A stretch of 35,072 nt of DNA, from the IMG/VR virus record IMGVR_UViG_2698536477_000006. One strand, written 5' to 3'. The position numbers and the translations under genes were made by a program. Shown here piece after piece: positions 3,592 to 26,819 of this stretch. Positions within the stretch are counted from its first letter, which is position 1. The number at the start of each line of letters is the position of its first letter. Source of the stretch: a virus (taxonomy: Duplodnaviria; Heunggongvirae; Uroviricota; Caudoviricetes). The notes below the pieces were generated by a model. It saw only the letters and a list, made by a program, of their open reading frames with translations. It searched no databases and was not told the DNA's origin.

Positions 3592-6039
3592 TTAACCGTC
3601 ATGCATCATGCTGGCACGGGCGCGCGCACGTTTATCCCGCTCGTATTTTTCGAGCGCATCCTGTAACTGGCGGTCAAGCTGTGTCCCCTGCGCAGTACCG
3701 CCCGTCAGGTTGATGTGATATTCGTTTTTACTCTGGTCCACATAAGAGCGGCCAGCCGGTGCCGTGACCGGCTGGTAAGCCTGATACCCCGCATAAGAGC
3801 TGGTCGCCGGAATATAATCACCTGTGCCATACGTGGCGGCATGAGTCCTTGCGGCGGTCTGGTCAAGTGTGTCTGACTCTTTGTTGATAACACCGAGTTT
3901 TTCCAGTACCCAGTCAATACCGCTGCGCAGTTTGTTGAACGCATTAAGCGGCAGCATCAGCGCGTCAGCCAGTGCCTGCCCGAACATGACGCCCGTGTCA
4001 CGGCAACGGTTCAGGGTGTCCTGGGTGGCTTTGACCGGGGCAATCAGGTTTTTAAACCACTGCCACGCGGCCTGTAACTTTTCACCCAGCCAGTCAAACA
4101 GCGGCTTAAGTGGCGTGAACAGCTCCCCCACCGGCGCAAATGCCGCTTTCAGCCCTTCAACCACACCGCCAAAGAATGCGCTGACAGGCTCCCAGTATTT
4201 ACGGATAAGTAACGCCCCGGCGACAATAGCGGCCACCACGGCCACAACCGGCCAGCTAATCGCCCCGATGGCGGTCATAACGGCACTGCCAACCGTCGTG
4301 AAGACTGCCCCCATTGCGCCTGCTGCCGCGATGATGGCATTGATGCCGGTGATAACCGGCCAGGCTACAAGACCAATTGCACCGATGATGCCAGTCAGCG
4401 CCAGCGCGCCACCGGCAATGATGCCGATGGTTGACGCCAGTGATTTGTTTTTCTGGATCCAGCCGTCGAGTTTTAACACATACTTTGTGGCCGTCTGCGT
4501 GAGCTTACGCAGCGCGCCTTCCTGCTGGTCAAACAGGTCAGTCCCCACCGCCTCATAAGCGGACTGAAACTCTTTAAAGTCACCGCCTAGGTTGTCCTGC
4601 ATGATATTTACCAGCTCGGCGGTCTTCCCGTCTGAGGCTTTAAACGCAGCGGTCAGTTTGTCCAGCTTTCCGGTTGAGGCGGCAGTCATCAGCACGGCGG
4701 CGGCTGAGCTGGCCTCCTCCCCGAAAATAGTTTTCATGTATTCAGCCTGCTGGGCAGTACCGAGCCGGTTTTTCTCAAAACTGGCCTGCATTTCTTTCAG
4801 AATGGTAAATATTGGCCGGGTGTTTCCCTTGCTGTCTGAGGTTTTCACTCCAAGCTCTTTGAGTGCATCCCATGCTTTTCCCGTCGGTGCCTGCAGGCGG
4901 CTTAACACGGCACGGCTTCCCGTCCCCGCCATTGAGCCTGTAATTTTTGCATCATGCAGCGCCCCGACCATTGCGGCGGTTTCTTCAATGCTGACACCGG
5001 CATTTTTTGCCACAGGTGCGGCATAGGTCAGCGCATCGCTCATGCCGTCAAAATCGGCGGCGGTTTTGTTCATCGTCATGGAGAGAACATCCCCGATATG
5101 AGCGACCTTATCGTTTGAAAGCTGAAAGGCGGATTTCATCCCCATCAGCAGGGCGGCGTTTTCTTCCATCGTGCGGCGGTTCGCCAGCGCCATGTTCAGC
5201 GTGACCGGCGTTGCCGCCTGAATGGCATCAACATCCCCACCGGCTTTCGCAATAATAATCTGCGCACCGGCTGCATCATCTGCCGAGGCGGCGGTATTGT
5301 CGCCGAGCTGGCGCGCCTGTTTGCGTAATGCGGCCATTTCGGCGGAGTCTTTTGCCACACCGAGCACAGCCTGCAATTCTGAGTTTTTCTGCGCAAACTC
5401 ATAACCGGGCATCAGCAGCTTAACACCGGCCATCGTTCCCGCAGCAGCAATCCCCACACCGGCAGCGCTCACTGAGGCCATATTTCCTGCCAGTTCTTTT
5501 CCGGCCTGATAACGCTGTTTTACTGCGTTAAGTTTTGCCTGTTGTGCACTGACACGCGCCAGTGCGTCGCGCTGACGGTTAAGCTGTGCGGTGGTTTCAC
5601 TGATACGGTTTTTCAGCCCCTGCTCATCATGTGCAAGATTGCGGGTATTAATTCCCACAGCGGCCAGTTCCCGCTGCTGGCGTTTAACGGAATCCGTCAG
5701 GCGGTTATATTTCGCCTGTAAGTCCTCCGCCGCTCGCTTTGCTGATTCCAGCACTTTCGCCTGAGCACGTGTCGGACGTTCGGTGTTTTTAAACTGTGTG
5801 GCAAGGGCTTCGGCCTCCTGCCGTGCCTTTTCAAGTGCATGACCAGTCACGGCGAGCTGTGCACTGGTCTTGCGAAATCCCTCAATACGGGATGCCTGAC
5901 CGTTCAGCTCGCGCAGTGATTTTTGTGTTTCCCGGATATCCCCCGACAGCGACTTACTCGCTGTGCGGATGGATTTAAACGGGCGGGATGCCTGGTCAAC
6001 AGCCCTGAGCAATACCTGTAATTTTACATTGTTACTCAT
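3592..6039 (-). CDS. T: Tail tape measure protein T
   Basis: 815 aa, Ala/Gly-rich with coiled-coil and hydrophobic segments; P2 gpT length. Confidence 0.9.
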   Translation of the reverse strand: MSNNVKLQVLLRAVDQASRPFKSIRTASKSLSGDIRETQKSLRELNGQASRIEGFRKTSAQLAVTGHALEKARQEAEALATQFKNTERPTRAQAKVLESAKRAAEDLQAKYNRLTDSVKRQQRELAAVGINTRNLAHDEQGLKNRISETTAQLNRQRDALARVSAQQAKLNAVKQRYQAGKELAGNMASVSAAGVGIAAAGTMAGVKLLMPGYEFAQKNSELQAVLGVAKDSAEMAALRKQARQLGDNTAASADDAAGAQIIIAKAGGDVDAIQAATPVTLNMALANRRTMEENAALLMGMKSAFQLSNDKVAHIGDVLSMTMNKTAADFDGMSDALTYAAPVAKNAGVSIEETAAMVGALHDAKITGSMAGTGSRAVLSRLQAPTGKAWDALKELGVKTSDSKGNTRPIFTILKEMQASFEKNRLGTAQQAEYMKTIFGEEASSAAAVLMTAASTGKLDKLTAAFKASDGKTAELVNIMQDNLGGDFKEFQSAYEAVGTDLFDQQEGALRKLTQTATKYVLKLDGWIQKNKSLASTIGIIAGGALALTGIIGAIGLVAWPVITGINAIIAAAGAMGAVFTTVGSAVMTAIGAISWPVVAVVAAIVAGALLIRKYWEPVSAFFGGVVEGLKAAFAPVGELFTPLKPLFDWLGEKLQAAWQWFKNLIAPVKATQDTLNRCRDTGVMFGQALADALMLPLNAFNKLRSGIDWVLEKLGVINKESDTLDQTAARTHAATYGTGDYIPATSSYAGYQAYQPVTAPAGRSYVDQSKNEYHINLTGGTAQGTQLDRQLQDALEKYERDKRARARASMMHDG

Positions 6040-6459
6040 TCGTGTTTCCGCTTCGCCGGAGCGCCTTTTCGCGCCATGTGATGAGTTCGGTCAGGCTCAT
6101 GGGATACAGTTCTGATGGCGGCCAGTGAAATATCACTGCCACATCCGCCATCAGGTCATCGACCGAGAGATTTTTCGGAAACGTCACTGCACCGAGTTCG
6201 GCGACAAAAAACCGACCACCTTACCGGCCAGCGCCACAAGATCAGGCAGTTCCAGCGCGGCGACTTCCTGCTCGGTCAGCATCGGTGCCGTCATGCGCGG
6301 CAGCACCTTAATCAGTGCATCGACTTCGGAGTTCGCGACCGCTGCCAGACTGACACCGCGCAGCGTCCCGGCATTAGGTTTCATCAGCGTGACCTGTTCG
6401 ATAACCTGCTCACCACGCTTGACCGGATTGTCCAGGGTAATGACATTTTCTTTGTTCAT
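6032..6459 (-). CDS. E+E': E+E' fusion made by programmed -1 ribosomal frameshift (142 aa)
   Basis: Hand translation: slippery heptamer T TTT TTG at 6205-6211 (minus strand) sits 6 codons before the E stop; the -1 frame continues VAELGAVTFPKNLSVDDLMADVAVIFHWPPSELYPMSLTELITWREKALRRSGNTNE to TAA at 6032-6034, giving 85+57=142 aa, the P2 E+E' length. Confidence 0.8.
6184..6459 (-). CDS. E: Tail assembly chaperone E (zero-frame product)
   Basis: 91-aa ORF ending ...KVVGFLSPNSVQ; P2 gpE length; sits between FII and T. Confidence 0.9.
   Translation of the reverse strand: MNKENVITLDNPVKRGEQVIEQVTLMKPNAGTLRGVSLAAVANSEVDALIKVLPRMTAPMLTEQEVAALELPDLVALAGKVVGFLSPNSVQ
6205..6211 (-). other. -1 frameshift slippery site T TTT TTG
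   Basis: Read directly; X XXY YYZ heptamer in the E zero frame (codons GGT TTT TTG). Confidence 0.8.
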
Positions 6460-6515
6460 GGTTTTCTCACTTCTGAATCAGGGTTAACCGGTCAGCCAGG
6501 CTGACCGGATGAAAA

Positions 6516-7034
6516 TCACAGGCCGATATTTCGGCGGTGTTGCTCCAGCCGGTCGACGCCGTTCACCTTCTCAATCATGTTGATGGTGTCGATTTCGACC
6601 AGCTCCTTACCGTCCATCGTCAGCCGGAAATAGGTGCAGACCACGGAGATTTTCGACTCGGTGTCTTCTCCCTGTTTACCCTCGCCGGTGTCGATTTCTT
6701 TCTGACGTCCACGCATGACCACCTCGACGGCCACCGTTTCGCCGGTATCGTCGCGCTGGTAAGAGCCTGCAAAACGAATCGGTACGGCATCCACACCGGT
6801 TGCGGCGTAAAGCTCCCAGATAACCGAATCCGGGAAGCCACCGAGCGACCACTCCATTGACAGCGCATCGTCATCAAGGCCGAGGTCTACCGGTGCGCTG
6901 CCGTTCATACCAGCACCGCGATAGTTTTCGAGCTTACGGGTCAGTTTTGGCAGCGTGACGGACTTCGCGACGCCCTGATAGCTGTAGCCGTTCAGAAAGA
7001 CGTTCATTAACTTGAGTTTGCGCGGCATTGCCAT
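6516..7034 (-). CDS. FII: Tail tube protein FII
   Basis: 172 aa; P2 gpFII length and position. Confidence 0.9.
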   Translation of the reverse strand: MAMPRKLKLMNVFLNGYSYQGVAKSVTLPKLTRKLENYRGAGMNGSAPVDLGLDDDALSMEWSLGGFPDSVIWELYAATGVDAVPIRFAGSYQRDDTGETVAVEVVMRGRQKEIDTGEGKQGEDTESKISVVCTYFRLTMDGKELVEIDTINMIEKVNGVDRLEQHRRNIGL

Positions 7035-7046
7035 CGGTCAGGCTCC

Positions 7047-8237
7047 TTAATTGCTGTTAACCGAGGTGACCAGATTTGCCAGGTATTTATCGGTAATACG
7101 CTGGCGCAGGGTCAGGTTTTCAAGAGGAGGCACCGGTGTATAGTCGTAGTCGATATACAGTTTTCCGGCCTTGAGGGTTTCCGCATCGTTGGATTCTTCG
7201 CTGAACCAGCAGGTCGCATCCACGATATAGCCGTTTGTTTTCAGCTCACGGAATTTGGCATTGATGCCGTCAACGATGTCGCGAATCAGCGTTGCGGTGA
7301 TGGGCTTGTCCACCGCCCACATGTGCGCCTCAGCCATCGTGTCGGCCAGCACCTGCGCGGTGCGGGTGTAGTTTTCAAAGAGGAACAGCGGGTCATCAGA
7401 GCAGGTACGGTTACCCCAGAATCGGAAACCGTCGCGGCGAATCAGCGTAGTGACGCCTGACTCGTTAAGCAGGTCAGCATCGGTGCCGGACTCCTGCAAA
7501 TCCCAGAATACAGATGCGCTGATGCCGGTAACACCGTTTACCCCGACGTTGGACAGCGTTTTATGCCAGCCCTGCTCCTGGTCGATTTTAGCGCGCAGAC
7601 CCAGCGCACGGGCGGTGGCATACGCGGTGGCGGTGGTACTGGTGACCGTATCCCATGCGAGGAAATCCGGCCAGATGACCATCAGCTCACGCTGGCTGAA
7701 ATTCTGGCGGTAGGCTTTCACCTCGGAAATGGTCTTACATCCCCATGCGCTGATATACCCGAAAGCACGCAGCTTCTGACAGACTGATGCCAGTGCAACA
7801 GCCACCTCTTTGGTGTCCAGTCCCGGTACGCCGAGAATTCGTGGTTTAACACCGGTTACCGACTCCGCCGCCAGCAGGGCTTTCAGTCCGGTGTACTGAC
7901 CGTTTTCGTCGGTGGTGCCGATGATATTGGAAACGGTCTGCGCGAGTTTCGTTTCCTCGTCGTCGCCGGTGCCGTCTTCCACACGCACAACAACGGTGAC
8001 CGGTTTTGACTGGTCAGCGATGGCCTGCAACGATACCGCCAGCGTGCCTTTTTTACCAGCCTTTGCAATTGCACTCTGCACATTGGTAATCAGCACAGGT
8101 TTATTGAGGGGGAAGGTTTCCGCATCTGCATCGCTGGCCGTGCAGACCATGCCGACAATGGCCGTGGATACGGTGGAAATGACGCGGGTGCCGTCGTTAA
8201 TTTCCAGCACCTGCACGCCGTGATGATAGTCACTCAT
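7047..8237 (-). CDS. FI: Contractile tail sheath protein FI
   Basis: 396 aa; P2 gpFI length and position. Confidence 0.9.
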   Translation of the reverse strand: MSDYHHGVQVLEINDGTRVISTVSTAIVGMVCTASDADAETFPLNKPVLITNVQSAIAKAGKKGTLAVSLQAIADQSKPVTVVVRVEDGTGDDEETKLAQTVSNIIGTTDENGQYTGLKALLAAESVTGVKPRILGVPGLDTKEVAVALASVCQKLRAFGYISAWGCKTISEVKAYRQNFSQRELMVIWPDFLAWDTVTSTTATAYATARALGLRAKIDQEQGWHKTLSNVGVNGVTGISASVFWDLQESGTDADLLNESGVTTLIRRDGFRFWGNRTCSDDPLFLFENYTRTAQVLADTMAEAHMWAVDKPITATLIRDIVDGINAKFRELKTNGYIVDATCWFSEESNDAETLKAGKLYIDYDYTPVPPLENLTLRQRITDKYLANLVTSVNSN

Positions 8238-8324: not shown

Positions 8325-8360
8325 ACAACAGATAAAGAAAAGGCGGGCAATCAGCCCGCC
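8325..8360 (-). terminator. Intrinsic terminator downstream of the cargo ORF (stem GGCGGGC / GCCCGCC, then T-rich tract on minus strand)
   Basis: 7-bp GC stem at 8342-8348 / 8354-8360 with 5-nt loop; minus-strand downstream sequence TTTTCTTTATCTG. Confidence 0.55.
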
Positions 8361-8503
8361 TGCCTTGATTTGTACTCACTCATTTTCCGACTGACAATTT
8401 ACATAGCCCAAAAGTTATCAAATCTGACAGTCTGCTTTGAGCGAGGAGCGGACATGGTCACACGATTAGTAAACCATGGTTTGTTTTTTAAATATTTATA
8501 TAG

Positions 8504-9832
8504 CTATAAATCAATTAGTTCAAAATTATCATCAATATCTAGAGTACCAATATTGATGGAAATTGTAGAGTTTACTGTACTTCTGATAAAAGTTAATAGC
8601 CCTATGAGTTTAGGCATTAATTCCTCATCAATACCACCCCTCACTACAGCTATAATTTCTCCTTGTGTTATATCTTCCCGCTCTAAAAACTTTTCAAGCT
8701 GTTGGATAGCAGAAAATAAGCGAGTCCTCATTGAGATCAATAAACCCCGAGAAGAAAAGCTTTTAATTTCCACAGCAATAACATCACTTTCTTTTTTAAC
8801 TATTAAATCTATAGTTGGCCTACATCCCAAAGAGGGTGACAGGTCAACTTCGAATCCATTTCTTATGTAAAATTCCGCAACAGATTTTTCGGCCAAATGT
8901 TCTATTGCAATTGGATTTTGGGATTGATAACTATATATAATTTGATTGCGGTCTTCCTCATCAAGATCAATCTCCCCTAGCTTGTTTATTGCACCATTGA
9001 GGATTTCTTTTACTTGGTTTGATAAACTTCTTATTTCACAAAAATCCTGTTTAGTTAAAAATCTGTTATGTGCAACCTTATTTCTCAATTTGTAAAGTCG
9101 CTCCCATTTTCTTTCAAGATGTTGCGAGTTCTCCTCCAGGAGAGTAGAGAAATACTTCTCCCAATTTGATTTGGGTACATATTTAAGTATTTTATTTTTA
9201 TCGGACTCATCAAAATTCGTTTTGATAAGAATCCTATCAAGCTCATCCAGAGTTATATCTCTCTTCTTTTGGAACAAAACTTCTGATAGATTTATGAAAT
9301 CAAGCTTGTAAAGATCATTCAAATACACATCATCTTCTTCAAATTTTTCGATTTTTTTCACTAAGTCTGGATGAATGGCTTCCTTTGACCAAGCCATGCC
9401 TACATTAATAAGCATAAATTTACTTATTAATTTCCTCATTACGTTTTCAACATCATTTATTATAGGGTAAGACTTATGCGCATAATATCTTCCAATATCA
9501 TCCCAAAGAATATTTATTACTGTAGATTCAGGGTTTATCCTTTTGCATAATTCTTTTATTTTATCTCCAACCTCAGAAAATTCATCAATTAATTCTTCGC
9601 TTGTGTTTTCCAATGCAATTATGAAATAACGTTCTTTGTTGGATGGGATGTTATTCGTTTCAACATTGAATTTAACCGTAATTAACGGATTCGATCTTGG
9701 GGTTTTCTTATATGTTAGTTTGCGCCCCGTGATTGAGATAAGCGAGTCAATTTTTAGAAAGTCAATAAAAGCTTTTTTACTATTGCAAAAAGAATCATCA
9801 TTTGTGACAAGAACCAAAAATTCAAGTTTCAC
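8504..9832 (-). CDS. Cargo protein at the Z/fun hotspot: uncharacterised 442-aa protein with HEPN-like Rx4H motif and PD-(D/E)xK nuclease-like motif (candidate anti-phage / abortive-infection effector)
   Basis: Long ORF in a markedly AT-rich island between FI and G. RNKVAH at aa 250-255 (nt 9068-9085) fits HEPN Rx4-6H. P-T-I-D-LIV ... VIAV-E-I-K at aa 339-357 (nt 8762-8818) fits a restriction-endonuclease-like D...ExK core. Own terminator downstream. Confidence 0.6.
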   Translation of the reverse strand: MKLEFLVLVTNDDSFCNSKKAFIDFLKIDSLISITGRKLTYKKTPRSNPLITVKFNVETNNIPSNKERYFIIALENTSEELIDEFSEVGDKIKELCKRINPESTVINILWDDIGRYYAHKSYPIINDVENVMRKLISKFMLINVGMAWSKEAIHPDLVKKIEKFEEDDVYLNDLYKLDFINLSEVLFQKKRDITLDELDRILIKTNFDESDKNKILKYVPKSNWEKYFSTLLEENSQHLERKWERLYKLRNKVAHNRFLTKQDFCEIRSLSNQVKEILNGAINKLGEIDLDEEDRNQIIYSYQSQNPIAIEHLAEKSVAEFYIRNGFEVDLSPSLGCRPTIDLIVKKESDVIAVEIKSFSSRGLLISMRTRLFSAIQQLEKFLEREDITQGEIIAVVRGGIDEELMPKLIGLLTFIRSTVNSTISINIGTLDIDDNFELIDL

Positions 9833-10133
9833 TCAAAAACCTCTTTATTTTATCTTCTCAATGGAAGTTGGATGAAAAATGTTATAATATTTAATTCTTT
9901 CTTGGAGTGCATAAAAATACTATTTTCTTTTTTCTGCACAAACTATCTCAACTCATCTAAATAATCATTTTCATACGCACCTACAGACATTAGACCTCCG
10001 AATAAAATTAACGCATCAACTTTTAAATATCTATAACACATGTATAGAAATACTCAAACAAAATTATACACAATTCTCCCTTGCTCGCTCTAATTTGTTC
10101 AACAGATACTATGATATTAACTACATCTGCTCC

Positions 10134-10175
10134 TAGCACAGAGCAGACTGTCAGAGTAGACTTTACTCTGTGCTA
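10134..10175 (-). other. Hairpin (10-bp arms TAGCACAGAG / CTCTGTGCTA, 22-nt loop) just downstream of G
   Basis: Inverted repeat read directly; no U-tract follows, so it is not a canonical intrinsic terminator. Confidence 0.3.
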
Positions 10176-10197: not shown

Positions 10198-10725
10198 TTA
10201 TTGCGGCATTTCCGGCCATTCAGGATTGGCAGGATCCACACGACTGACCAGAACGCTGTAGCGTTCCCATGTTTTAAGTCGGCTACGCTCCTCATCTGTT
10301 GCCATATTCAGCCTGACAGCACGCTCCAGCGGCAAAATCACGGATTCAGCATCTGCTAGAAGTCTGGCTTTCCGATTTTCTCCCTGCTGCTGCAATTCCT
10401 CTGCCGTATAAATTCGTTTAATCACTGTGCCATCCTTAAACATCCAGTTCCCTGAAATGTCCGCCCGTCGGTTAGCAGTAATATCCGTCACTTCAACAAC
10501 ACTTAATCCATCCGGTCTGATAGCTGTCACATCCTTTTCCACATAGCGGATGATATTATCTTTGTCGTACGCTATTTTTATCGTGTCATCAGCAAAATAC
10601 TTTTGTTCTTCGTACCAGTTCTTACCATCTTCTGAAAAAAACCAGACAACATCAAAGTCCTTTGTCAATTGATATTGTTCAACCGTTTTTGGATTACCCG
10701 CCGTAATATTTTTTAAATGCTGCAT
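10198..10725 (-). CDS. G: Tail fibre assembly chaperone G
   Basis: 175 aa; P2 gpG length; directly downstream of the tail fibre gene. Confidence 0.85.
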
Positions 10726-10728
10726 AAA

Positions 10729-12858
10729 TTATACCTGCGCCACGTTATACCATGTCCCGTTAATGTATTTCTGCACCGGTCTGTAATATACGCCACCAAT
10801 GTTATCGGCAGAGTTTGAGCCGGTATCCTGAACAATAATGCCGGTATATACACACCCTGACGGTACCTGATGTGTCCATGTCATGCCATTGTTCGCAGGT
10901 TTGTATGTGGCGGCACCACCAAGCCGGATATCCCGGACATAGCGGGAGTCAAAGTTACCGTAATCTGTGGGATTAACACGCCCCGTAATATTTATGGTTT
11001 TATTACTTTGAATGCTACCGGAGACAAAGCGCATAACATGAACGTTATTAGCATAAACATCCAGATTACCGTCGCCATTTTGTTTAAAGCCTGTGTCATT
11101 ATCACCCAAAACAATCGAGTTACCGCCAAGAGCACTGGATGTTCCGATGCCCAGTGCACCATTCAATTGACCTCCAGATAATGGCAACGCCCCAACATCA
11201 GCAGCAGTCGGTTTAATGTGCGAACTGTAAATTACATATACAGTTCCATCTGTCAGGCCTGTTGGTTTATTCGCTGTATAAGATGGTGATGTATGAATCG
11301 TTACGCTGGCGTTACTGGTATAATCCCACTGAATATTAACACCTGTGGCGTAATTACCTATTTCAACATAAACATCATAGGTATCACCGGATGTATTCAC
11401 CCATGCAAAATTAGTAAATCCAACCGATGTCCGTCGCCATAACGCACCAGTAAGACCTTTTGGATTTCCATTTCCCGCACGAAGAACAAGTTCAGATATA
11501 CCAGCCTGCATAGGGGAGTTAACATTATATCCAGCACCACCAATCAGACTTATGTAAACCACGGAACTGGCCTGTGGCATGGTTACAGTTGCCAGCCTGA
11601 ACCATCCTGTACCACCACTAAAAGACATGGTTGTTGAATTTGTTGCACCAATATTGCGCAGGAATAATCTTTTATCAGGAATATCCGCACCGTTCTGATC
11701 TTTCTGAAGACGTTTCTCAGCATTGTCATAGGCAGACTTCACCGCTTTTGGTGTTGCGGCGAGCGTTTCAGACGTGCTGTTAGTCGCACTACTGAGCTGA
11801 ACAAGGCCTTTTCGCGCCGTGGTGGCATCCTGCGCAGTATATTTCCCGTTAGCAAGGTCATACGCGACCTTTACCGCCTTTGGTGTTGCCGCAAGCGTTT
11901 CTGAATCGCTGTTGGTGGCGCTACTGAGCTGGACAAGACCTTTTCGCGCCGTGGTGGCATCCTGTGCGGTATATTTCCCGTTAGCGAGGTCATATGCTGC
12001 CTTTACCGCCTTTGGCGTTGCCGCAAGCGTTTCAGAATCGCTGTTGGTGGCGCTACTGAGCTGAGCAAGCCCTTTTCGCGCTGTGGTGGCGTCCTGTGCA
12101 GTGTATTTCCCGTTAGCAAGGTCATATGCTGTCTTTACTGCTTTTGGCGTTGCGGCGAGCGTTTCAGACGTGCTGTTAGTCGCACTACTGAGCTGAACAA
12201 GGCCTTTTCGCGCCGTGGTGGCATCCTGCGCAGTATATTTCCCGTTAGCAAGGTCATATGCGGCCTTTACCGCTTTCGGCGTTGCGGCCAGTGTTTCAGA
12301 CGTGCTGTTGGTCGCACTGCTTAACTGAGTAAAACCTTTTGCGGTCAGCGAGGCGTCCGGGTGACGTCGTGACTGTTCGTGCTCTGCAATTTTGTCATCA
12401 ACGTAATCCTGCGTCGCCATCACCGTTGTGGTGTCAATGGTCAGCGCCACTGAGGCCACACTGCTGACGATGATGACCATGCGACAGGTCTGCGAACGCC
12501 CTGAGCCTTCGGCAAGAGCTGGCTTATAACTTTCGGCCATGTTCGCCACGGCAATTAATGTTCCCGCATCATCGTACAGGCCAAGCTCACGCATCCAGAA
12601 ACCGCCCACCTCCGGCGGAATAACCAGCTCTGCGATAATATAATTACTGTTTCGTTTGTCCTGACTGATTTTGTTCAGCGCATGTCGCCAGACTTCGTGG
12701 ATAAGCCCGGTCTGTCCGGCATCCGGGACAGGCAATTTACCACCGCCATCCCCGACGGCCATCGTGGTAATGTTGACCTTCCGCCCTCCCGGTGCGGTTG
12801 CCGCTGCCAGCTTTGCTGCACCGGCAGTGGTGATAACGGTTTTGAATTTTGTGCTCAT
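10729..12858 (-). CDS. H: Tail fibre protein H (conserved P2-type N-terminus, repeat-containing shaft, divergent C-terminal receptor-binding region)
   Basis: 709 aa; N-terminus MSTKFKTVITTAGAAKLAAA... is the P2 gpH type; internal 44-aa tandem repeats; Gly/Ser/Thr-rich C-terminal half. Confidence 0.9.
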   Translation of the reverse strand: MSTKFKTVITTAGAAKLAAATAPGGRKVNITTMAVGDGGGKLPVPDAGQTGLIHEVWRHALNKISQDKRNSNYIIAELVIPPEVGGFWMRELGLYDDAGTLIAVANMAESYKPALAEGSGRSQTCRMVIIVSSVASVALTIDTTTVMATQDYVDDKIAEHEQSRRHPDASLTAKGFTQLSSATNSTSETLAATPKAVKAAYDLANGKYTAQDATTARKGLVQLSSATNSTSETLAATPKAVKTAYDLANGKYTAQDATTARKGLAQLSSATNSDSETLAATPKAVKAAYDLANGKYTAQDATTARKGLVQLSSATNSDSETLAATPKAVKVAYDLANGKYTAQDATTARKGLVQLSSATNSTSETLAATPKAVKSAYDNAEKRLQKDQNGADIPDKRLFLRNIGATNSTTMSFSGGTGWFRLATVTMPQASSVVYISLIGGAGYNVNSPMQAGISELVLRAGNGNPKGLTGALWRRTSVGFTNFAWVNTSGDTYDVYVEIGNYATGVNIQWDYTSNASVTIHTSPSYTANKPTGLTDGTVYVIYSSHIKPTAADVGALPLSGGQLNGALGIGTSSALGGNSIVLGDNDTGFKQNGDGNLDVYANNVHVMRFVSGSIQSNKTINITGRVNPTDYGNFDSRYVRDIRLGGAATYKPANNGMTWTHQVPSGCVYTGIIVQDTGSNSADNIGGVYYRPVQKYINGTWYNVAQV
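11719..12345 (-). repeat. About five tandem in-frame 132-nt (44-aa) repeats inside the tail fibre gene
   Basis: Protein motif QLSSATNS(T/D)SETLAATPKAVKxAYDLANGKYTAQDATTARKGLx recurs with 44-aa period from about aa 174 to 378; the nucleotide copies are near-identical with a few substitutions. Confidence 0.85.
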
Positions 12859-15350: not shown

Positions 15351-15803
15351 CTAACGGTCGAGGTGAGCCAGGATAATCTCTTCAATCATCTGCACATCCT
15401 CACCGGTAAAGCCGAGCAGAGGACGCGCCGGATAATCAATTTTCTTACCGTCTTTCCGGGTTTCTTCCGACAGACCGAACTGATGCACACTGGCGATTTT
15501 CGGTGACTTCCCGCCGTAAAACTCCATTGATGCCTGTTCAGGGCTGGCGCGGATATGCAAAAAACGACTGGTGATAAGTTTCGCAAACATTTTTCGCTTA
15601 ACGCGACCGGTCTTTTTTCTGGCGCTCTGCTGCTGGCGTGGCACGTAGGGGGTGCCGTCCGGGGCTTTCTGTGCCATCACCCGACGCTGCTGACTCTGCC
15701 GCAGACGTTTCGCCAGTTCGGCACTCAGTCGCCGACGCCCTGACGGTGACAGCGATTCAATAAGTCCGGTCAGCCGGTCTTCAAAACGCTTAAACTCATT
15801 CAT
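15351..15803 (-). CDS. S: Tail completion protein S
   Basis: 150 aa; P2 gpS length and position. Confidence 0.9.
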   Translation of the reverse strand: MNEFKRFEDRLTGLIESLSPSGRRRLSAELAKRLRQSQQRRVMAQKAPDGTPYVPRQQQSARKKTGRVKRKMFAKLITSRFLHIRASPEQASMEFYGGKSPKIASVHQFGLSEETRKDGKKIDYPARPLLGFTGEDVQMIEEIILAHLDR

Positions 15804-16263
15804 CCCACTTGCTCACCAGTTCGCCATTGATATAAAGCTCCATCGGGCGGGTGACGGGCTCCGGCGGCGTGGGTTCCGGGATATTCTTCACATGCAGCGC
15901 GCCGTCAACCTCACTGACCAGCGTGCGCTCGGTCAGCATCAGGCTGATACTGATATCAAAGCTGCTGTCATTGTTGATGTCCGCATAAAACGTGAAGCCC
16001 TTTTTCTGGCCTTCGTCGGTGGTCATGATGTCGGGCTGATTTTCCCGCAGCCACGCCAGCACCGGCACGATGAGCAGGTCAAAATCACCGGTAAAGTCGG
16101 TCACAATGACATTGAGCGTGTAACGCTTTTCAAATGACAGCGACGTCGCCAGTGTGGAGGCAATACTCCCGTTATCCACGAATATCCGCAGCATCTCGGG
16201 ACTGGTTTTCAGCACCGTGACGGCATCAGTCAGCGCCCTGCGCAGGCTGTCGGGTTTGAGCAT
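15796..16263 (-). CDS. R: Tail completion protein R
   Basis: 155 aa; P2 gpR length and position. Confidence 0.9.
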   Translation of the reverse strand: MLKPDSLRRALTDAVTVLKTSPEMLRIFVDNGSIASTLATSLSFEKRYTLNVIVTDFTGDFDLLIVPVLAWLRENQPDIMTTDEGQKKGFTFYADINNDSSFDISISLMLTERTLVSEVDGALHVKNIPEPTPPEPVTRPMELYINGELVSKWDE

Positions 16264-16516
16264 CGTTTTCGTCCTGACAGTGTTTAATCATTTTTACCTG
16301 GCTGGCACAACGTGCCAGCGCGTTCTCAAGCTGCCTGATATCAGCACTTAAATCGCCGTTCGTCTCCGGGTCACTGCCCGGCATCGGGCAAAGACTCACT
16401 TTCGGGCAGGCGTTGTGGACAATCACTGGCGTCGGTGCAGGCCGGGCGCTGGTGCAACCGGCGCACAGCATCAGGCAGGTCAGCGCCGTACCAGCGGCGA
16501 AAATCTTCGTTTTCAT
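16226..16516 (-). CDS. lysC: LysC, Rz1-like outer-membrane lipoprotein spanin
   Basis: 96-aa product MKTKIFAAGTALTCLMLCAGC... with lipobox L-C-A-G-C; lies in an alternate frame overlapping the 3' part of lysB and the start of R; internal start chosen at the signal peptide. Confidence 0.7.
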   Translation of the reverse strand: MKTKIFAAGTALTCLMLCAGCTSARPAPTPVIVHNACPKVSLCPMPGSDPETNGDLSADIRQLENALARCASQVKMIKHCQDENDAQTRQPAQGAD

Positions 16517-16796
16517 TAAGTAACCTCGTGATGGTTTTCTCGCGCTGTGCTTCACGCTTCGCGGCGTTCTCCAGTTCCTGACGCAGTGCCACCTGCGCCA
16601 GCTCGTTTTTGTCTGCCCTGGTGAGCGCAACATGAAGCTGATTTTTCAGCATGGTGATGGTCGTCTGCTGTTCACTGGCGACGTTATTCGCCCTGTCCAG
16701 CGAGGCGCGCAGACTGGCATTTTTGTGTTTCACCAGAAACAGACCGGCCACCGCCAGCGATAACAACACAACCAGCACAGTCATCAGCTTTGACAT
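16371..16796 (-). CDS. lysB: LysB, Rz-like inner-membrane spanin
   Basis: 141 aa; N-terminal transmembrane segment then charged coiled-coil; P2 LysB length. Confidence 0.85.
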   Translation of the reverse strand: MSKLMTVLVVLLSLAVAGLFLVKHKNASLRASLDRANNVASEQQTTITMLKNQLHVALTRADKNELAQVALRQELENAAKREAQREKTITRLLNENEDFRRWYGADLPDAVRRLHQRPACTDASDCPQRLPESESLPDAGQ

Positions 16797-17209
16797 GGTT
16801 CCCGCCCCTCAAAACGCTGACGACAGGCCGTACGTATCAGCCGGAATAACAGCGCCGCCACGAGATAAATCAGCGCGGTAAAAATCCACCCGGCAGCGAC
16901 CAGCGAGATAAACGTCGCCACCATCACCACCAGACCCATCGCCCGTCTGCACCACGTCACCGGCTGCAAATACAGCGACGTGACAATCTTCACGGCCAGC
17001 GATTCCGGCGGAAGCTCCCGCCCGTAGCGTTCAAGTACATACTCTGTGGCATACACGCCGACACCACCGGCAACCACACAGATAACTGTCGCCAGAATCG
17101 CCCAGGCGGCGACAAAACTGACGGCCACGCTCTGCGGGTAAATCAGGGACAGTGCCAGCATCAGCGCCAGCGACACGTTCAGCATCAGTGAAAGGGATAA
17201 TTTCTTCAT
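16784..17209 (-). CDS. lysA: LysA, membrane protein controlling lysis timing
   Basis: 141 aa with multiple hydrophobic helices; P2 LysA length and position. Confidence 0.85.
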   Translation of the reverse strand: MKKLSLSLMLNVSLALMLALSLIYPQSVAVSFVAAWAILATVICVVAGGVGVYATEYVLERYGRELPPESLAVKIVTSLYLQPVTWCRRAMGLVVMVATFISLVAAGWIFTALIYLVAALLFRLIRTACRQRFEGREPCQS

Positions 17210-17223
17210 GGTGTTTACTCCGT

Positions 17224-17721
17224 TTAAGCCGGTACGCCGCCAGCGGTACGCCAGACGGTGACCAGTTTTTCCAGTGAATGCTCACGCTGACCGTAACCGG
17301 CTCCCGGCAGGGACGCCCAGATATTGCGACAGCGTGAAATGGCGCGCTCAATGCGTCCCTCCCGGATGTCATCCAGTGCACCGCGTTCGCGGATCAACTG
17401 AATGGCAAGTCTGTCCTGTGACAACGGACTGAAATCCGGCAGGGCAAGCTGTTTGCGGTAGTGCGGCCAGAACAGGTAAAGCTGCTGATAGCGACCGGAA
17501 GCCGTGGATTTTTCACCGCGACGGTTAAACACCTTCGCCGGTCGGCCATGCGCGAACGGGTGGTCACTGTAGTCGGTGAATATTTCCGGCTTTCCGTCCA
17601 GTCCGGTGACTATCACGTCATAGCCCCGGTTTTTCGTCAGCGGGTGATTCGCCGTCCCTTCGGACACGGCCAGCATGTCGAGAAAGGCGGCGATATTCTG
17701 ATGCGTGTTAATTACCGGCAT
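17224..17721 (-). CDS. K: Endolysin K (lysozyme)
   Basis: 165 aa; P2 gpK length and position. Confidence 0.9.
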   Translation of the reverse strand: MPVINTHQNIAAFLDMLAVSEGTANHPLTKNRGYDVIVTGLDGKPEIFTDYSDHPFAHGRPAKVFNRRGEKSTASGRYQQLYLFWPHYRKQLALPDFSPLSQDRLAIQLIRERGALDDIREGRIERAISRCRNIWASLPGAGYGQREHSLEKLVTVWRTAGGVPA

Positions 17722-21724: not shown

Positions 21725-23497
21725 ATGACCATCACCACAGACACCACTCTTTTACACGACCCGCGTCGTCAGGCGGCGCTGCTGTACTGGCAGGGATTTT
21801 CCGTGCCGCAGATTGCTGCCATGTTGCAGATGAAACGCCCGACGGTGCAGAGCTGGAAACAGCGCGACGGCTGGGACAGCGTTGCCCCCATCAGCCGTGT
21901 CGAAATGAGTCTGGAAGCGCGGCTGACCCAGCTCATCATCAAACCGCAGAAAACCGGCGGTGACTTCAAGGAAATTGACCTGCTCGGACGCCAGATTGAA
22001 CGACTGGCACGGGTAAACCGCTACAGCCAGACCGGCAACGAGGCAGACCTTAATCCGAACGTCGCTAACCGCAACAAAGGCGGGCGGCGCAAACCGAAAA
22101 AGAATTTTTTCAGTGACGAGGCCATCGAAAAGCTGGAGCAGATTTTCTTTGAGCAGTCTTTCGAATATCAGTTGCACTGGTATCGCGCCGGGCTTGAGCA
22201 CCGCATCCGCGATATCCTGAAATCCCGCCAGATTGGCGCAACGTTTTATTTTTCCCGCGAGGCGCTGCTGCGCGCCCTGAAAACCGGCCATAACCAGATT
22301 TTTCTGTCGGCCAGTAAAACGCAGGCGTATGTGTTCCGCGAATACATCATCGCCTTTGCCCGTCTGGTTGACGTTGACCTGACCGGTGACCCGATTGTCC
22401 TGGGCAATAACGGCGCAAAACTGATTTTTCTCGGCACCAACTCCAACACCGCGCAGAGCCATAACGGCGACCTGTACGTCGACGAGATTTTCTGGATCCC
22501 GAATTTTCAGGTACTGCGTAAGGTGGCATCAGGTATGGCCTCACAGAGCCACCTGCGCTCGACCTATTTCTCCACCCCGTCCACGCTGGCGCACGACGCC
22601 TACCCGTTCTGGTCGGGTGAACTGTTTAACCGGGGACGCGCCAGCGCCGCCGAACGCGTGGAAATCGACGTCAGTCATAACGCCCTTGCCGGAGGTCTTC
22701 TCTGTGCGGACGGCCAGTGGCGGCAGATTGTCACCATTGAGGACGCCCTGAAAGGCGGCTGCACGCTGTTCGACATTGAGCAGCTCAAACGTGAAAACAG
22801 CGCCGACGATTTTAAAAACCTGTTCATGTGTGAATTTGTTGACGACAAGGCGTCGGTGTTCCCGTTCGAGGAGCTGCAACGCTGCATGGTCGACACGCTG
22901 GAAGAATGGGAAGACTATGCGCCGTTTGCCGCCAATCCGTTCGGCTCCCGCCCGGTCTGGATTGGTTACGACCCGTCACACCGTGGCGACAGTGCCGGAT
23001 GCGTGGTGCTGGCACCGCCGGTGGTGGCCGGTGGCAAATTCAGAATACTTGAGCGTCACCAGTGGAAAGGCATGGACTTTGCCACACAGGCGGAATCCAT
23101 CCGCAAACTCACCGAAAAATACAACGTCGAATACATCGGAATTGATGCCACCGGCCTCGGTGTCGGCGTGTTCCAGCTCGTGCGCTCGTTCTATCCCGCC
23201 GCGCGCGATATCCGCTACACGCCGGAAATGAAAACCGCAATGGTGCTCAAGGCAAAAGACGTCATCCGCCGTGGCTGTCTGGAATATGACGTCAGCGCCA
23301 CCGACATCACCAGCTCGTTTATGGCTATCCGCAAGACCATGACCAGCAGCGGACGCAGCGCCACTTATGAGGCCAGCCGCAGCGAGGAAGCCAGCCACGC
23401 CGACCTCGCCTGGGCGACCATGCACGCCCTGTTAAATGAGCCACTCACCGCCGGTATCAGCACACCGCTGACATCCACCATTCTGGAGTTTTACTGA
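21725..23497 (+). CDS. P: Terminase large (ATPase) subunit P
   Basis: 590-aa product from ATG at 21725 (MTITTDTTLL...); divergent from O across the P_O/P_P intergenic region. Confidence 0.9.
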   Translation: MTITTDTTLLHDPRRQAALLYWQGFSVPQIAAMLQMKRPTVQSWKQRDGWDSVAPISRVEMSLEARLTQLIIKPQKTGGDFKEIDLLGRQIERLARVNRYSQTGNEADLNPNVANRNKGGRRKPKKNFFSDEAIEKLEQIFFEQSFEYQLHWYRAGLEHRIRDILKSRQIGATFYFSREALLRALKTGHNQIFLSASKTQAYVFREYIIAFARLVDVDLTGDPIVLGNNGAKLIFLGTNSNTAQSHNGDLYVDEIFWIPNFQVLRKVASGMASQSHLRSTYFSTPSTLAHDAYPFWSGELFNRGRASAAERVEIDVSHNALAGGLLCADGQWRQIVTIEDALKGGCTLFDIEQLKRENSADDFKNLFMCEFVDDKASVFPFEELQRCMVDTLEEWEDYAPFAANPFGSRPVWIGYDPSHRGDSAGCVVLAPPVVAGGKFRILERHQWKGMDFATQAESIRKLTEKYNVEYIGIDATGLGVGVFQLVRSFYPAARDIRYTPEMKTAMVLKAKDVIRRGCLEYDVSATDITSSFMAIRKTMTSSGRSATYEASRSEEASHADLAWATMHALLNEPLTAGISTPLTSTILEFY

Positions 23498-24531
23498 TGA
23501 GCAAGAAAAAAGGGAAAACACTGCAACCTGCGGCAAAAAAAATGACCGCCAGTGCCCCGAAAATGGAGGCATTCACCTTTGGCGAACCGGTGCCGGTACT
23601 CGACCGCCGTGACATTCTGGATTACGTCGAGTGCATCAGTAACGGCAGATGGTATGAGCCACCAATCAGCTTTACCGGTCTGGCAAAAAGCCTGCGTGCT
23701 GCCGTGCATCACAGCTCCCCGATTTACGTCAAACGCAATATTCTGGCCTCGACATTTATCCCGCATCCGTGGCTGTCCCAGCAGGATTTCAGCCGCTTTG
23801 TGCTGGATTTTCTGGTGTTCGGTAATGCGTTTCTGGAAAAGCGTTACAGCACTACCGGTAAAGTCATCAGACTGGAAACCTCACCGGCAAAATATACCCG
23901 CCGTGGTGTGGAAGAGGATGTTTACTGGTGGGTGCCGTCCTTCAACGAGCCGACAGCCTTCGCGCCCGGTTCCGTGTTTCACCTGCTGGAGCCGGATATT
24001 AATCAGGAGCTGTACGGCCTGCCGGAATATCTCAGCGCCCTTAACTCTGCCTGGCTGAATGAGTCGGCCACGCTGTTCCGCCGCAAGTATTACGAAAACG
24101 GCGCACATGCCGGATACATCATGTACGTTACCGATGCCGTGCAGGATCGCAACGATATCGAAATGCTTCGCGAAAACATGGTGAAGTCGAAAGGCCGCAA
24201 CAACTTTAAAAACCTGTTTCTCTATGCCCCACAGGGAAAAGCCGACGGCATTAAAATTATCCCGCTCAGTGAAGTGGCAACGAAGGACGATTTTTTTAAT
24301 ATCAAAAAAGCCAGCGCCGCAGACCTGCTGGACGCGCACCGCATCCCCTTTCAGTTGATGGGCGGCAAGCCGGAGAACGTCGGGTCGCTGGGTGATATTG
24401 AGAAAGTGGCAAAGGTCTTTGTCCGCAATGAGCTTATCCCGTTACAGGACAGGATCCGCGAGATAAACGGCTGGCTCGGTCAGGAGGTCATCCGCTTTAA
24501 AAACTACTCACTGGACACTGACAACGGCTGA
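23497..24531 (+). CDS. Q: Portal protein Q
   Basis: 344 aa; P2 gpQ length; last gene before cos. Confidence 0.9.
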   Translation: MSKKKGKTLQPAAKKMTASAPKMEAFTFGEPVPVLDRRDILDYVECISNGRWYEPPISFTGLAKSLRAAVHHSSPIYVKRNILASTFIPHPWLSQQDFSRFVLDFLVFGNAFLEKRYSTTGKVIRLETSPAKYTRRGVEEDVYWWVPSFNEPTAFAPGSVFHLLEPDINQELYGLPEYLSALNSAWLNESATLFRRKYYENGAHAGYIMYVTDAVQDRNDIEMLRENMVKSKGRNNFKNLFLYAPQGKADGIKIIPLSEVATKDDFFNIKKASAADLLDAHRIPFQLMGGKPENVGSLGDIEKVAKVFVRNELIPLQDRIREINGWLGQEVIRFKNYSLDTDNG

Positions 24532-24848: not shown

Positions 24849-26819
24849 TTAAAGGTCATCAATTAAACCTAAAGGCAAACCGTCCTCACCAACCGAGCTA
24901 TAATGAGCGATAATATTCGAAAGTTCACCAGTAGAAAACGAATTAGGCAAATCATTATCAACTAATATAATCTGGCACGGAACATTTTTTCTTTCTGCTT
25001 TTTGAACTGTATTCAATAGTTGTTCATAAATATTTTGATACTTCATCGGATCTGACATTCCCTCAAGGTCATCCTCGAATGCAAGAGTTTCTTTTGAATA
25101 TTTTTCCTTGGTCTGTTTCCCTAAATATTTGCCAACCGTATCAAATATCAAAAGTAAAGGATGGTTAACATTATGATCTATTGCATAATCAAGAATAGAC
25201 AAAAGATACCCAATAGAAGAAATAGTTCTCAAACCTCCGGATGTTATTTTAAAATATTCTTTTTCTCTTATAACAGGAATGTAATAGCTTTCAGAGATTT
25301 TTATCCCCGTTCTGTTTTTGATATTAATACCCTTCAAATACTGACTAAATCTATCACCCAAACCTTGTAAAATGCCCTCCATGCTAGGTGCGTTTTTCTT
25401 TAACGCCTCCAAGCGTTCAGTTAATGCTTCAATATCTTTTCTCAGTACCTGATACTTTTCAAGCAGTTCCTCTTGCTGGTTTCTAACCTTCAAATCTTTT
25501 ACTAACTGCTCCCTAACCTTCTCATTTTTTGAGATCTCTTTAATATAAAAATCTCTCTGAGTCAAGAATGGTGTAATCATTGACTGGCTTTCTTCGTCAA
25601 TCAATTCTCTCAACTCGTCAAGTCGTTCATCTAATTCCTTTTTATAACCTGATTCTTTTTTTAATTTAAATGACATTTCTGAGATCATGTCATTAATATT
25701 TCGTCTACGTCGACTAAGTGAATTCAACTCTTCATTAAGATCTTTTTCTGATGAGATTTCAAATGGAAAATCAGAATCATCTATTTTAATGTGGCTATCA
25801 CAGACTGGACAGGAAAATACTTCCTTATCCAATACACCAATGCGAGAATTTGCTGTTTTAATCGCTTTGAGTTTTTCAATATCATTATCATAGTCATTTT
25901 TTAACCGCGAATATTTATCAATCTTATCCTCAAGCGCAGTAATATTTAATATGCACTCTTTGTATTTAAGCGAAATAAAATTGTGAGCATCTTTCAATTC
26001 TGTATACTGTATGGAATCCGCTTTCATATTTTTATCGAGAGCAGACAAACCTGCAACAAGTTCTTCTAAAACAAGATCTATCCTATTAATCTCATCATCA
26101 ATTGATTCAATCGTTTCATAGTCTGTATCGCGAAGAAATTCAGATATTATCTGATACTTCCTATTTAATTCCGTTACTAAACTACTTTTTGCAGATATTT
26201 CACCTTGGAGTCTGGCGATGCTTTCATCCAACACATTGAACATGTATTTAAAAACTTCTTTCGTAAATGCGTAGCGGGACCAATCACCCAATCGCAAGAA
26301 AGATTTACTACCAATATCATCCTGACTTACATAAACAAATTTATATATATTTCTAAAACTTAACCTGCGCATCTGTGAATGAGCTTTAGAAGGAGACACC
26401 TTAATTTCAATCTTTGGAAAATTAAGACTATCAAGTAAAAACTCCGAAAAAACACCATCAACATTTGATAATGGGCTATAATTAGGAGCGTATTTTTTCG
26501 GAAAATGTTTATGTAAATCATCAAACTTACAACGATAAACTTCTATTGCTTTTTTATGATCATAGATATCTCTTACGATTGTGAATACAGTATCATTGAT
26601 CACTACTTCAAGAGCAGCATAGTTTACTGATGTTTTTATTTCATCTGCTAAATCTATAGAGCTAGCACCTAAAAGATAATTAATAAACTCCAGAATGCTT
26701 GACTTACCTGTGTCAGAGTCTCCGTAGATAACATTGAGACCTTTATAAAAAGTAGTGACGTAGTTTTTACGAACGCCAACAAGAATCAAACTATTGATAT
26801 TGAGATATGATTTCATCAT
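24849..26819 (-). CDS. SMC/Rad50-like ABC ATPase (Lamassu LmuB-like / ABC-3C ATPase component): N-terminal Walker A, long central coiled-coil with CxxC hook, C-terminal signature-like and Walker-B-like motifs
   Basis: 656 aa; Walker A GDSDTGKS at aa 33-40; central region rich in E/K/L heptad-like sequence; CPVC at aa 337-340 (nt 25800-25811); ITSGG at aa 525-529; hydrophobic strand LLLIFD at aa 555-560; start overlaps stop of the upstream gene. Confidence 0.75.
   Translation of the reverse strand: MMKSYLNINSLILVGVRKNYVTTFYKGLNVIYGDSDTGKSSILEFINYLLGASSIDLADEIKTSVNYAALEVVINDTVFTIVRDIYDHKKAIEVYRCKFDDLHKHFPKKYAPNYSPLSNVDGVFSEFLLDSLNFPKIEIKVSPSKAHSQMRRLSFRNIYKFVYVSQDDIGSKSFLRLGDWSRYAFTKEVFKYMFNVLDESIARLQGEISAKSSLVTELNRKYQIISEFLRDTDYETIESIDDEINRIDLVLEELVAGLSALDKNMKADSIQYTELKDAHNFISLKYKECILNITALEDKIDKYSRLKNDYDNDIEKLKAIKTANSRIGVLDKEVFSCPVCDSHIKIDDSDFPFEISSEKDLNEELNSLSRRRRNINDMISEMSFKLKKESGYKKELDERLDELRELIDEESQSMITPFLTQRDFYIKEISKNEKVREQLVKDLKVRNQQEELLEKYQVLRKDIEALTERLEALKKNAPSMEGILQGLGDRFSQYLKGINIKNRTGIKISESYYIPVIREKEYFKITSGGLRTISSIGYLLSILDYAIDHNVNHPLLLIFDTVGKYLGKQTKEKYSKETLAFEDDLEGMSDPMKYQNIYEQLLNTVQKAERKNVPCQIILVDNDLPNSFSTGELSNIIAHYSSVGEDGLPLGLIDDL

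Follow-up and report, generated by a model that had tools for sequence, protein, structure and literature searches.

The active sites of HEPN ribonucleases are composite, being built from two Rx4-6H motifs, and PrrC, RloC, HepS, Tha and Cas13 are all gated RNases. Two of these, HepS from the Gifsy-1 prophage and Tha from S. aureus prophages, are single HEPN proteins that act as abortive RNases triggered by phage tail proteins (PMC13043305, PMC11087260). Fusions of a HEPN domain to a restriction endonuclease (REase) domain have also been described: the EC042_2821/DUF3644 proteins were catalogued in 2013, with a role in conflict systems that was predicted only (Anantharaman et al., PMC3710099). 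In the reference record of phage P2 (NC_001895), fun(Z) lies directly upstream of the tail sheath gene FI and is annotated as a non-essential lysogenic conversion gene that blocks T5, and this site, noted as the second P2 hotspot, has been reported as a defence hotspot, with three systems found there (Vassallo et al., PMC9519451). Here we describe the cargo gene found at the Fun/Z site of a complete P2-like prophage, IMG/VR record IMGVR_UViG_2698536477_000006 (the window: the whole stretch of 35,072 nucleotides that was analysed). The gene (8504..9832, minus strand) begins with GTG and encodes a protein of 442 amino acids (aa) that is listed in RefSeq as WP_053895392.1, 'HEPN domain-containing protein'. 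By analogy with the systems above, this cargo is most likely a HEPN-based single-gene prophage defence module, familiar in kind and belonging to an unnamed family.

An AlphaFold2 model of the protein, built from a 46-sequence alignment, shows three domains at a mean predicted local distance difference test (pLDDT) of 77.7. All three, like the motifs within them, are encoded on the minus strand. Residues 1-111 (9500..9832) form a beta-alpha-beta, ferredoxin-like domain of the ACT/RRM kind; residues 112-295 (8948..9499) form an all-helical, Swt1-like HEPN domain; and residues 305-442 (8507..8920) form a PD-(D/E)xK nuclease-fold domain of the AHJR/YraN-like type. Structural neighbours with a HEPN fold include AF0298 (2hsb; score 9.1), the sacsin HEPN domain (8.0) and HI0074 (7.6), and those with a ferredoxin-like or ACT fold include Foldit4 (9.2), AHAS small subunits, the Rel ACT domain and NikR; because aligned ranges were not reported, we assigned these neighbours to domains by fold type and aligned length. 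A preliminary description of this locus, made from its letters alone, had proposed that an Rx4H motif marks a HEPN active site and that a P339-x-x-D342...E355-x-K357 arrangement further downstream marks a restriction-endonuclease-like core. Its numbering of R250, H255, D342, E355 and K357 is correct, and the structure prediction that it called for, taken together with the structural neighbours, places both motifs in the proposed folds. It also stated that the first ~240 residues hold no recognizable motif; instead, that segment contains the ferredoxin-like domain and the first half of the HEPN domain, including a conserved E129-N130-x-x-R133.

We computed close-family conservation on 114 full-length homologues and used 125 representatives as the distant set. 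The predicted catalytic motif R250-N-K-V-A-H255 (9068..9085) is identical in 114/114 close homologues, N256 is likewise invariant, and E129-N130-x-x-R133 forms a second invariant cluster in the same domain; even among the 125 distant representatives, R250, A254, H255, E129 and R133 do not vary. The N-terminal domain has invariant residues of its own (E4, F15, C16, E67-R68-x-F70 and W110) and is always paired with the HEPN domain in this family. That the Rx4H motif sits in a HEPN fold is borne out by the helical domain and its structural neighbours, and members of the family reach the Pfam threshold for Swt1-like HEPN domains: relatives P0146 and P0182 exceed the HEPN_Swt1 cut-off with 29.5 and 29.1 bits, and several homologues at 65-67% identity to the window protein have a precomputed PF18731 match.

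This family is large and widespread. A word-indexed search returned 276 homologues at E<=1e-3, the best 120 of which are 47-100% identical to the window protein, mostly full-length (~440 aa) and usually named 'HEPN domain-containing protein'; these 120 come from Enterobacterales, Vibrio, Aeromonas, Pseudomonas, Chromobacterium, Betaproteobacteria and others. An exhaustive HMMER scan over 1.84 billion cluster representatives (50% identity clusters) retrieved 981 clusters with E<=1e-3, of which 288 reach E<=1e-30; most of the best 150 of the 981 match residues 1-300 only. The mean identity of close homologues to the query is 0.56-0.83 over residues 1-260 and 281-300 and 0.42 over 261-280, falling to 0.16-0.41 past residue 320. 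Pairwise ratios of nonsynonymous to synonymous substitution (dN/dS) are 0.04-0.15 for the N-terminal domain, 0.07-0.14 for the HEPN domain and 0.27-0.45 for the C-terminal domain, so that all three domains are under purifying selection, with the C-terminal one 5-9 times less constrained.

In the model, that C-terminal domain follows the alpha-beta-beta-beta-alpha-beta order of the restriction-endonuclease fold, with E315 on helix 1 and D342 and E355-x-K357 on strands 2 and 3. The predicted core (8762..8890) consists of E315 (8888-8890), D342 (8807-8809), E355 (8768-8770) and K357 (8762-8764), and all four residues are intact in the window protein. The core proposed in the preliminary description therefore stands for D342, E355 and K357 but not for P339, which is found in only 4% of homologues, so that the literal 'PD' is a coincidence; conservation instead singles out E315 as the acidic partner. 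Searched against solved structures, a close-family profile found only the YraN protein 3fov (E 0.11), aligning E315...D342...E355-V-K357 to the E..D..EVK of that protein. The NCBIfam YraN model PRK14676 gave a score of 15.9 against a cut-off of 190, and a Pfam PDDEXK_10 match in the window protein also fell below its curated cut-off; as modelled, the resemblance to AHJR-like and YraN proteins is one of fold only.

Conservation of this putative nuclease site is uneven. D342 is kept in 100% of the 114 close homologues, E315 in 94%, E355 in 75% (with Asp in another 7%) and K357 in 79%, which leaves the canonical E-D-(E/D)-x-K tetrad in 77/114 (68%) and 32% without it. No D...[ED]xK pattern at all occurs in 26/114; this regular expression, D..[ED]xK, is a conservative test of absence for the close family only, and is uninformative for the broad family because 34% of shuffled tails match it. 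More distantly, the domain itself is exchanged. The C-terminal tails of the 125 distant representatives fall into unrelated groups, many of them singletons. In the largest group (47/125) the tail is a second HEPN domain, which in P0158 gives an above-threshold HepT-like match, and a second Rx4H motif lies 70-170 residues downstream of the first in 48/125, compared with 7% of shuffled tails. One relative has ankyrin repeats in this position, and another may carry an EVE domain. With R250, H255, E129 and R133 invariant in all 125, the N-terminal and HEPN domains together make up the constant unit, to which exchangeable C-terminal domains are joined. A single viral contig (IMGVR_UViG_3300011836_000020) carries two paralogues, a full-length one of the PD-(D/E)xK type with 63% identity to the window protein (L015, 6001-7365) and one of the distant type, with 32% identity over the N-terminal and HEPN domains (L029, 5965-7272). 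The pairing of RNase and DNase modules in the preliminary description thus holds in part: both motif sets are present in predicted folds in the window protein, but the tetrad is canonical in only 77 of the 114 and the domain carrying it is replaced in distant relatives. Three observations make an accessory role the best reading of this domain: many homologues do without the tetrad, relatives have another domain in its place, and it evolves the fastest of the three. At the level of sequence it looks like an accessory part rather than a co-equal effector.

The explanation that we favour, and regard as probable, is that the cargo gene is a single-protein anti-phage module in which a latent HEPN RNase is the abortive-infection effector and the PD-(D/E)xK domain is an accessory sensor or a second nuclease. 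Reasoning from genomic context and from analogy, we envisage that the AT-rich region upstream of the gene would drive its expression in the lysogen, at a low level on account of the GTG start. The Swt1-like HEPN domain would be the constant catalytic effector, acting with the ferredoxin-like N-terminal domain, and would be held latent until a competing phage infects. Given the composite nature of HEPN active sites, activation would probably occur by oligomerisation; relatives with tandem HEPN domains may instead complete an active site within one chain by means of the second domain. Once active, the HEPN domain would cleave RNA (tRNA, mRNA or rRNA), so that translation stops and the infection is aborted. 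The most likely role of the C-terminal domain is to bind phage DNA or branched replication intermediates, which it may also cut, and it would thereby supply an activating or dimerising signal or else serve as the second nuclease.

The roles could also be reversed, with direct immunity conferred by the PD-(D/E)xK domain, acting as the effector in the manner of a restriction-like or structure-specific DNase, and the HEPN domain as an RNA-binding or regulatory sensor. We consider this unlikely: the catalytic R and H of the HEPN domain are invariant family-wide, which would be unexpected for a mere binding domain, whereas the tetrad has been lost repeatedly, the whole nuclease domain has been replaced in most distant relatives, and the C-terminal domain evolves under the weakest constraint. 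It nevertheless draws some strength from the window protein, with its complete tetrad on a canonical fold, and from the retention of that tetrad by about two thirds of close homologues, as well as from the occurrence of HEPN-REase fusions in restriction-modification (R-M) contexts (PMC3710099) and from E. coli screens in which many systems with remote PD-(D/E)xK similarity provided direct immunity (PMC9519451).

A dual suicide effector, with RNase and DNase both active as the preliminary description suggested, neither domain a sensor, and triggering either through the N-terminal domain or through the removal of an inhibitor encoded by host or prophage, seems to us less likely again. Roughly a quarter to a third of close homologues have no functional-looking tetrad while being otherwise well conserved, and relatives have a second HEPN domain or ankyrin repeats where the nuclease should be. 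This idea would account for the two intact catalytic sets of the window protein, and for an N-terminal domain that is as conserved as the HEPN domain and whose ACT/RRM-like fold would suit the binding of a ligand or of RNA.

The setting of the gene is that of exchangeable cargo. The preliminary description placed the 442-aa open reading frame (ORF) as a single cargo at the Z/fun site, and it does indeed lie alone between tail genes G and FI. Homology to prophages that hold a different cargo, the 197-aa 'lysogenic conversion protein', is lost at positions 8455 and 10125, delimiting a swapped cassette of 1,669 bp (8456..10124, no strand assigned). Its AT-richness, noted earlier by eye, is confirmed by counting: the G+C content of the cassette is 31.5% (0.30-0.34 over 8500-10100), compared with 0.54-0.60 in the flanking tail genes and 0.501 for the whole window. 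The 442-aa frame is the sole credible ORF of the cassette, and the chance of an open frame of 442 codons at this composition is ~4e-18. A Shine-Dalgarno sequence, AAAGAGG (9840..9846, minus strand), lies 7 nt 5′ of the GTG, within an AT-rich non-coding stretch (9833..10124, minus) that travels with the gene and presumably holds its own promoter, with only a weak sigma-70 match at 9951-9922. The same upstream stretch contains a 15-codon mini-ORF, MSVGAYENDYLDELR (9943-9990, minus), with a GGAGG Shine-Dalgarno sequence at 9995-9999. In a Citrobacter locus, nucleotide identity is 93.6% over the ORF together with 305 nt on its 5′ side and 80 nt on its 3′ side (window 10137-8424), and gene and upstream region therefore travel as one unit of ~1.7 kb. 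An RNA antitoxin, as in a type III toxin-antitoxin pair, was considered and rejected: the cassette has no Rfam match above noise and no tandem repeat array outside the coding sequence.

A 35-nt imperfect inverted repeat, with the core AGCAGACTGTCAG, flanks the cassette exactly. Repeat comparison places its FI-side arm at 8418..8452 and its G-side arm, which is 83% complementary to the first, at 10126..10160 (neither with an assigned strand). The FI-side arm is also found in prophages holding other cargos, and 3′ of the HEPN gene both in Rahnella (locus L002, 9620-9656) and in a second P2-like prophage (locus L047, ~7394). The repeat could derive from an ancestral hairpin that was split, or could anchor the recombination by which cargo is swapped and inverted. 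Further out, the conserved flank contains a G+C-rich bidirectional terminator hairpin (8341..8361, no strand), which lies past the 3′ end of the cargo and ahead of the FI late promoter and was recognized from the hairpin itself and from the pF elements in the P2 record.

The preliminary description expected that genomes with the same flanks would reveal cargo swapping, and they do. The FI-side flank is shared by 1,032 of 5,426 complete E. coli genomes, across which the FI-side break recurs at ~8445-8461, and only 5 of these hold the HEPN cargo, in a cassette that is 99.7-99.9% identical among the five unrelated isolates. In other prophages the G-FI slot is occupied, in either orientation, by five other types of single-gene cargo: the 197-aa protein already mentioned (its name is from RefSeq), a 299-aa hypothetical protein, Sll1717-family P-loop ATPases of 484 and 528 aa, and a SMEK-domain protein. 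A tblastn search of 50,697 deposited phage genomes with the cargo protein gave no match, although 114 of these phages have the FI-side flank.

Features of the gene itself point to cost and mobility. Among the non-redundant close-family loci, 13/16 use GTG or TTG as the start codon, despite an N-terminus that is conserved from residue 1 (starts compared: window 9830-9832 and loci L002-L017, L044 and L047); such non-ATG starts would fit selection to keep the translation of a toxic protein weak. Homologues have 28-33% G+C in every host checked (Escherichia, Citrobacter, Rahnella, Providencia and Vibrio; genes in loci L002, L003, L006, L011, L044 and L047 plus window 8504-9832), which suggests a long history as mobile AT-rich cargo. 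The rarity of the cargo, the non-ATG starts and the AT-richness of the homologues can be taken together as signs of a costly gene.

At every locus examined, homologues occupy mobile accessory positions, either prophage accessory sites or defence islands. A 71%-identical homologue occupies the corresponding G-to-sheath site in another P2-like prophage, and a 75% homologue in Rahnella at the other P2 hotspot (portal-gpA, old/tin), adjoining a PDC-M36A-like gene. The 93% homologue in Citrobacter lies in islands with a Septu-like AAA_15+HNH pair or a retron-like set of reverse transcriptase plus ATPase, together with a DUF4145 HEPN protein; another homologue is directly 3′ of a prophage integrase, and others lie in integrase-bounded islands with DUF2971/PDC-S31, KAP-NTPase/PDC-S20 and T5orf172 genes. 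In Pseudomonas putida, the homologue follows a reverse transcriptase, near a resolvase and insertion sequence genes. That reverse transcriptase is 424 aa long, lies 105 nt upstream on the same strand (L004, 6622-7896; L005, 68-1369), and has the generic RT model and RT_UG17 as its best PADLOC matches. We considered a reverse transcriptase as an obligatory partner and rejected it, as it is absent from all other contexts and the cassette has no other credible ORF; having been seen in this one context, it probably belongs to a neighbouring system.

Among viral sequences, 33 IMG/VR contigs carry relatives, and in ~12 of them a ~190-aa gene lies just upstream of the relative and a ~350-aa gene just downstream. 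A Pfam scan of these neighbours in three contigs (L021, L031 and L033) identified the upstream gene as a 186-type CI repressor (PF07022+PF16452) and the downstream one as an integrase. The relatives of this subgroup (L021-L029, L031, L033 and L035, gene at ~5960-7270) are distant ones of 418-443 aa. With a CI repressor and an integrase as its neighbours, the relative lies inside a lysogeny operon, a site of expression in the lysogen.

Set against these contexts, the least probable alternative is that the gene is not anti-phage at all, being an addiction or toxin-like module, a factor for the prophage's own cycle or a decaying passenger: although P2 hotspots do hold cargo of such kinds and the family is without a known defence phenotype, all three domains are under purifying selection, the cassette is nearly identical in five unrelated isolates, it contains no antitoxin gene, RNA family or repeat array, and the gene is consistently found beside defence genes and in lysogeny operons.

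Several observations nonetheless weigh against the latent-HEPN explanation that we prefer. The window protein itself scores below both of the relevant Pfam cut-offs, with 20.6 bits for HEPN_Swt1 (PF18731; E 5.6e-4, residues 205-264, cut-off 27.5) and 16.1 bits for AHJR-like (PF18743; E 8.5e-3, residues 307-365, cut-off 26.1). Residues 146-174, inside the HEPN domain, are the only stretch modelled with low confidence (pLDDT 40-51). The intact tetrad of this particular protein leaves room for a DNase-led mechanism. Cargo unrelated to defence, including partition systems and toxins, is likewise carried in P2 hotspots (PMC9122126). In PADLOC v2 at E<=1, the only match was to component B of PDC-M34 (E 4.7e-7), covering profile positions 60-108 of 192, and our literature search found no paper naming or testing this HEPN cargo family and no phage-exclusion or toxicity data for its members. 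As to the second of these points, the stretch 146-174 (window ~9311-9397) is rich in invariant residues (W148, L157, K160, I161 and D173), and it could form an interface, or else become ordered only upon oligomerisation or substrate binding.

Searches for more familiar relatives were otherwise negative. The defence-database comparison suggested in the preliminary description thus yielded a partial HEPN match to an unvalidated candidate, and no model of a validated system; all relatives tested also match PDC-M34B, via the HEPN domain. The PD-T4, PD-T7, PD-lambda, Rst, Gao and Millman systems gave no match, as far as PADLOC v2 contains them. Foldseek of the full model against the Protein Data Bank (PDB) found no full-length analogue, only local matches to Hjc, Can2 and ferredoxin folds, and against BFVD only restriction-endonuclease-like viral proteins. 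The sequence of the single protein matched nothing among solved structures at E<=10, a broad-family profile gave only chance matches there, and NCBIfam and PHROGs searches with the cargo protein gave only noise-level ones. The earlier statement that no named family can be assigned holds across PADLOC, solved structures, phage genomes and the literature, none of which supplied a match to a named family.

We also offer, more tentatively and as a possibility rather than an expectation, a wider reading of the family: a fixed chassis of ferredoxin-like domain and HEPN RNase would carry interchangeable C-terminal receptors (PD-(D/E)xK, a second HEPN, ankyrin repeats and others), making it a modular immune sensor in one polypeptide. 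In the PD-(D/E)xK version, a decaying, Holliday-junction-resolvase-like domain would sense phage DNA in a structure-specific way and license RNA cleavage, so that one protein would link the sensing of DNA directly to an RNase, and cassettes would shuttle between P2 hotspots by way of the 35-nt inverted repeats.

The remainder of the window provides the setting for this cargo. The conserved flanks are the tail sheath gene FI (7047..8237, minus strand), followed by the tail tube gene FII (6516-7034), and on the other side the tail-fibre assembly gene G (10198..10725, minus) and the tail fibre gene H (10729-12858, minus). H contains about five tandem copies of a ~44-aa unit, …YTAQDATTARKGLVQLSSATNS[TD]SETLAATPKAVK.AYDLANGK…; in strain MMC-J-0020, whose prophage is otherwise identical, the H region consists of a shorter gene plus a pseudogene (locus L001, 8430-10672). 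The other hotspot of the window, between the portal gene Q (23497-24531) and gpA (28628-30952), holds a complete Lamassu system (24849-28538, minus), with LmuA at 27315-28538 (PADLOC E 9e-109), LmuC at 26816-27328 (E 1.5e-52) and LmuB at 24849-26819 (E 1.5e-235), all on the minus strand.

If an anti-phage phenotype is confirmed, the bacterial immune repertoire would gain an unnamed, widespread single-gene defence family, one that spans its 981 clusters over several lineages, mainly Gamma- and Betaproteobacteria, is often phage-borne, and would be missed by current detection tools. The constant HEPN chassis with its exchangeable C-terminal domains is a natural experiment on the gating of HEPN RNases, and at 1.7 kb the cassette is small enough for direct cloning and mutation, which makes it a good and cheap experimental candidate. 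The modular architecture of the family and the inverted repeat around the hotspot go beyond the preliminary description, and the turnover of single-gene cargo within that conserved repeat is now documented for G-FI, the less-studied hotspot of P2-like phages.

How, then, does this protein compare with known systems? PDC-M34, the source of the one PADLOC match, is an unvalidated candidate that appears, judging from the A/B naming of its components, to be a multi-gene one; the cargo gene has no adjacent component A, the cassette being single-ORF, and we found no paper mentioning PDC-M34. EC042_2821 is an E. coli protein of similar size with the same order of an N-terminal HEPN and a C-terminal restriction-endonuclease-fold domain, but its HEPN family is a different one (the cargo protein has no DUF3644 match at E<=1), and that family is described in R-M operons, whereas the cargo gene is solitary and its Swt1-like HEPN domain is preceded by a conserved 111-aa domain. 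Fun(Z) shares the G-FI slot and the character of non-essential lysogenic-conversion cargo, blocking T5 when cloned according to the annotation of NC_001895; it is, however, an unrelated 528-aa protein on the opposite strand (15675-17261 of that record), and location is all that the two have in common. A cargo of the length and orientation of Fun(Z) in E. coli 20AR0354 (L052, 4391-5977) is named 'P-loop ATPase, Sll1717 family', and this agreement in length and orientation suggests that Fun(Z) may itself be a P-loop ATPase of that family.

Among gated HEPN enzymes, the HEPN dyads of Cas13 and eukaryotic Swt1 resemble the 48/125 distant relatives with a second Rx4H motif, located ~120 residues past the first; by analogy with Cas13, this arrangement suggests an intramolecular composite HEPN site. 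The window protein, by contrast, has a single HEPN domain and would need to oligomerise, and it has no guide RNA or CRISPR association. PrrC and RloC offer a parallel to the mechanism that we propose, as latent HEPN RNases that become active during phage infection and kill by cutting tRNA; their ABC-ATPase N-terminal domain, and the silencing of PrrC by an R-M system, have no counterpart here. Functionally closest, by analogy, are HepS and Tha. The cargo protein differs from them in adding the ferredoxin-like N-terminal domain and the C-terminal PD-(D/E)xK domain, and in that neither its own sequence nor the family profiles revealed similarity to a solved structure. It shares with them a prophage-encoded, single-gene design with a HEPN Rx4H RNase effector (predicted in our case) and, if our proposal is right, the combination of sensing and killing in one polypeptide, together with the need for the prophage to avoid triggering its own defence.

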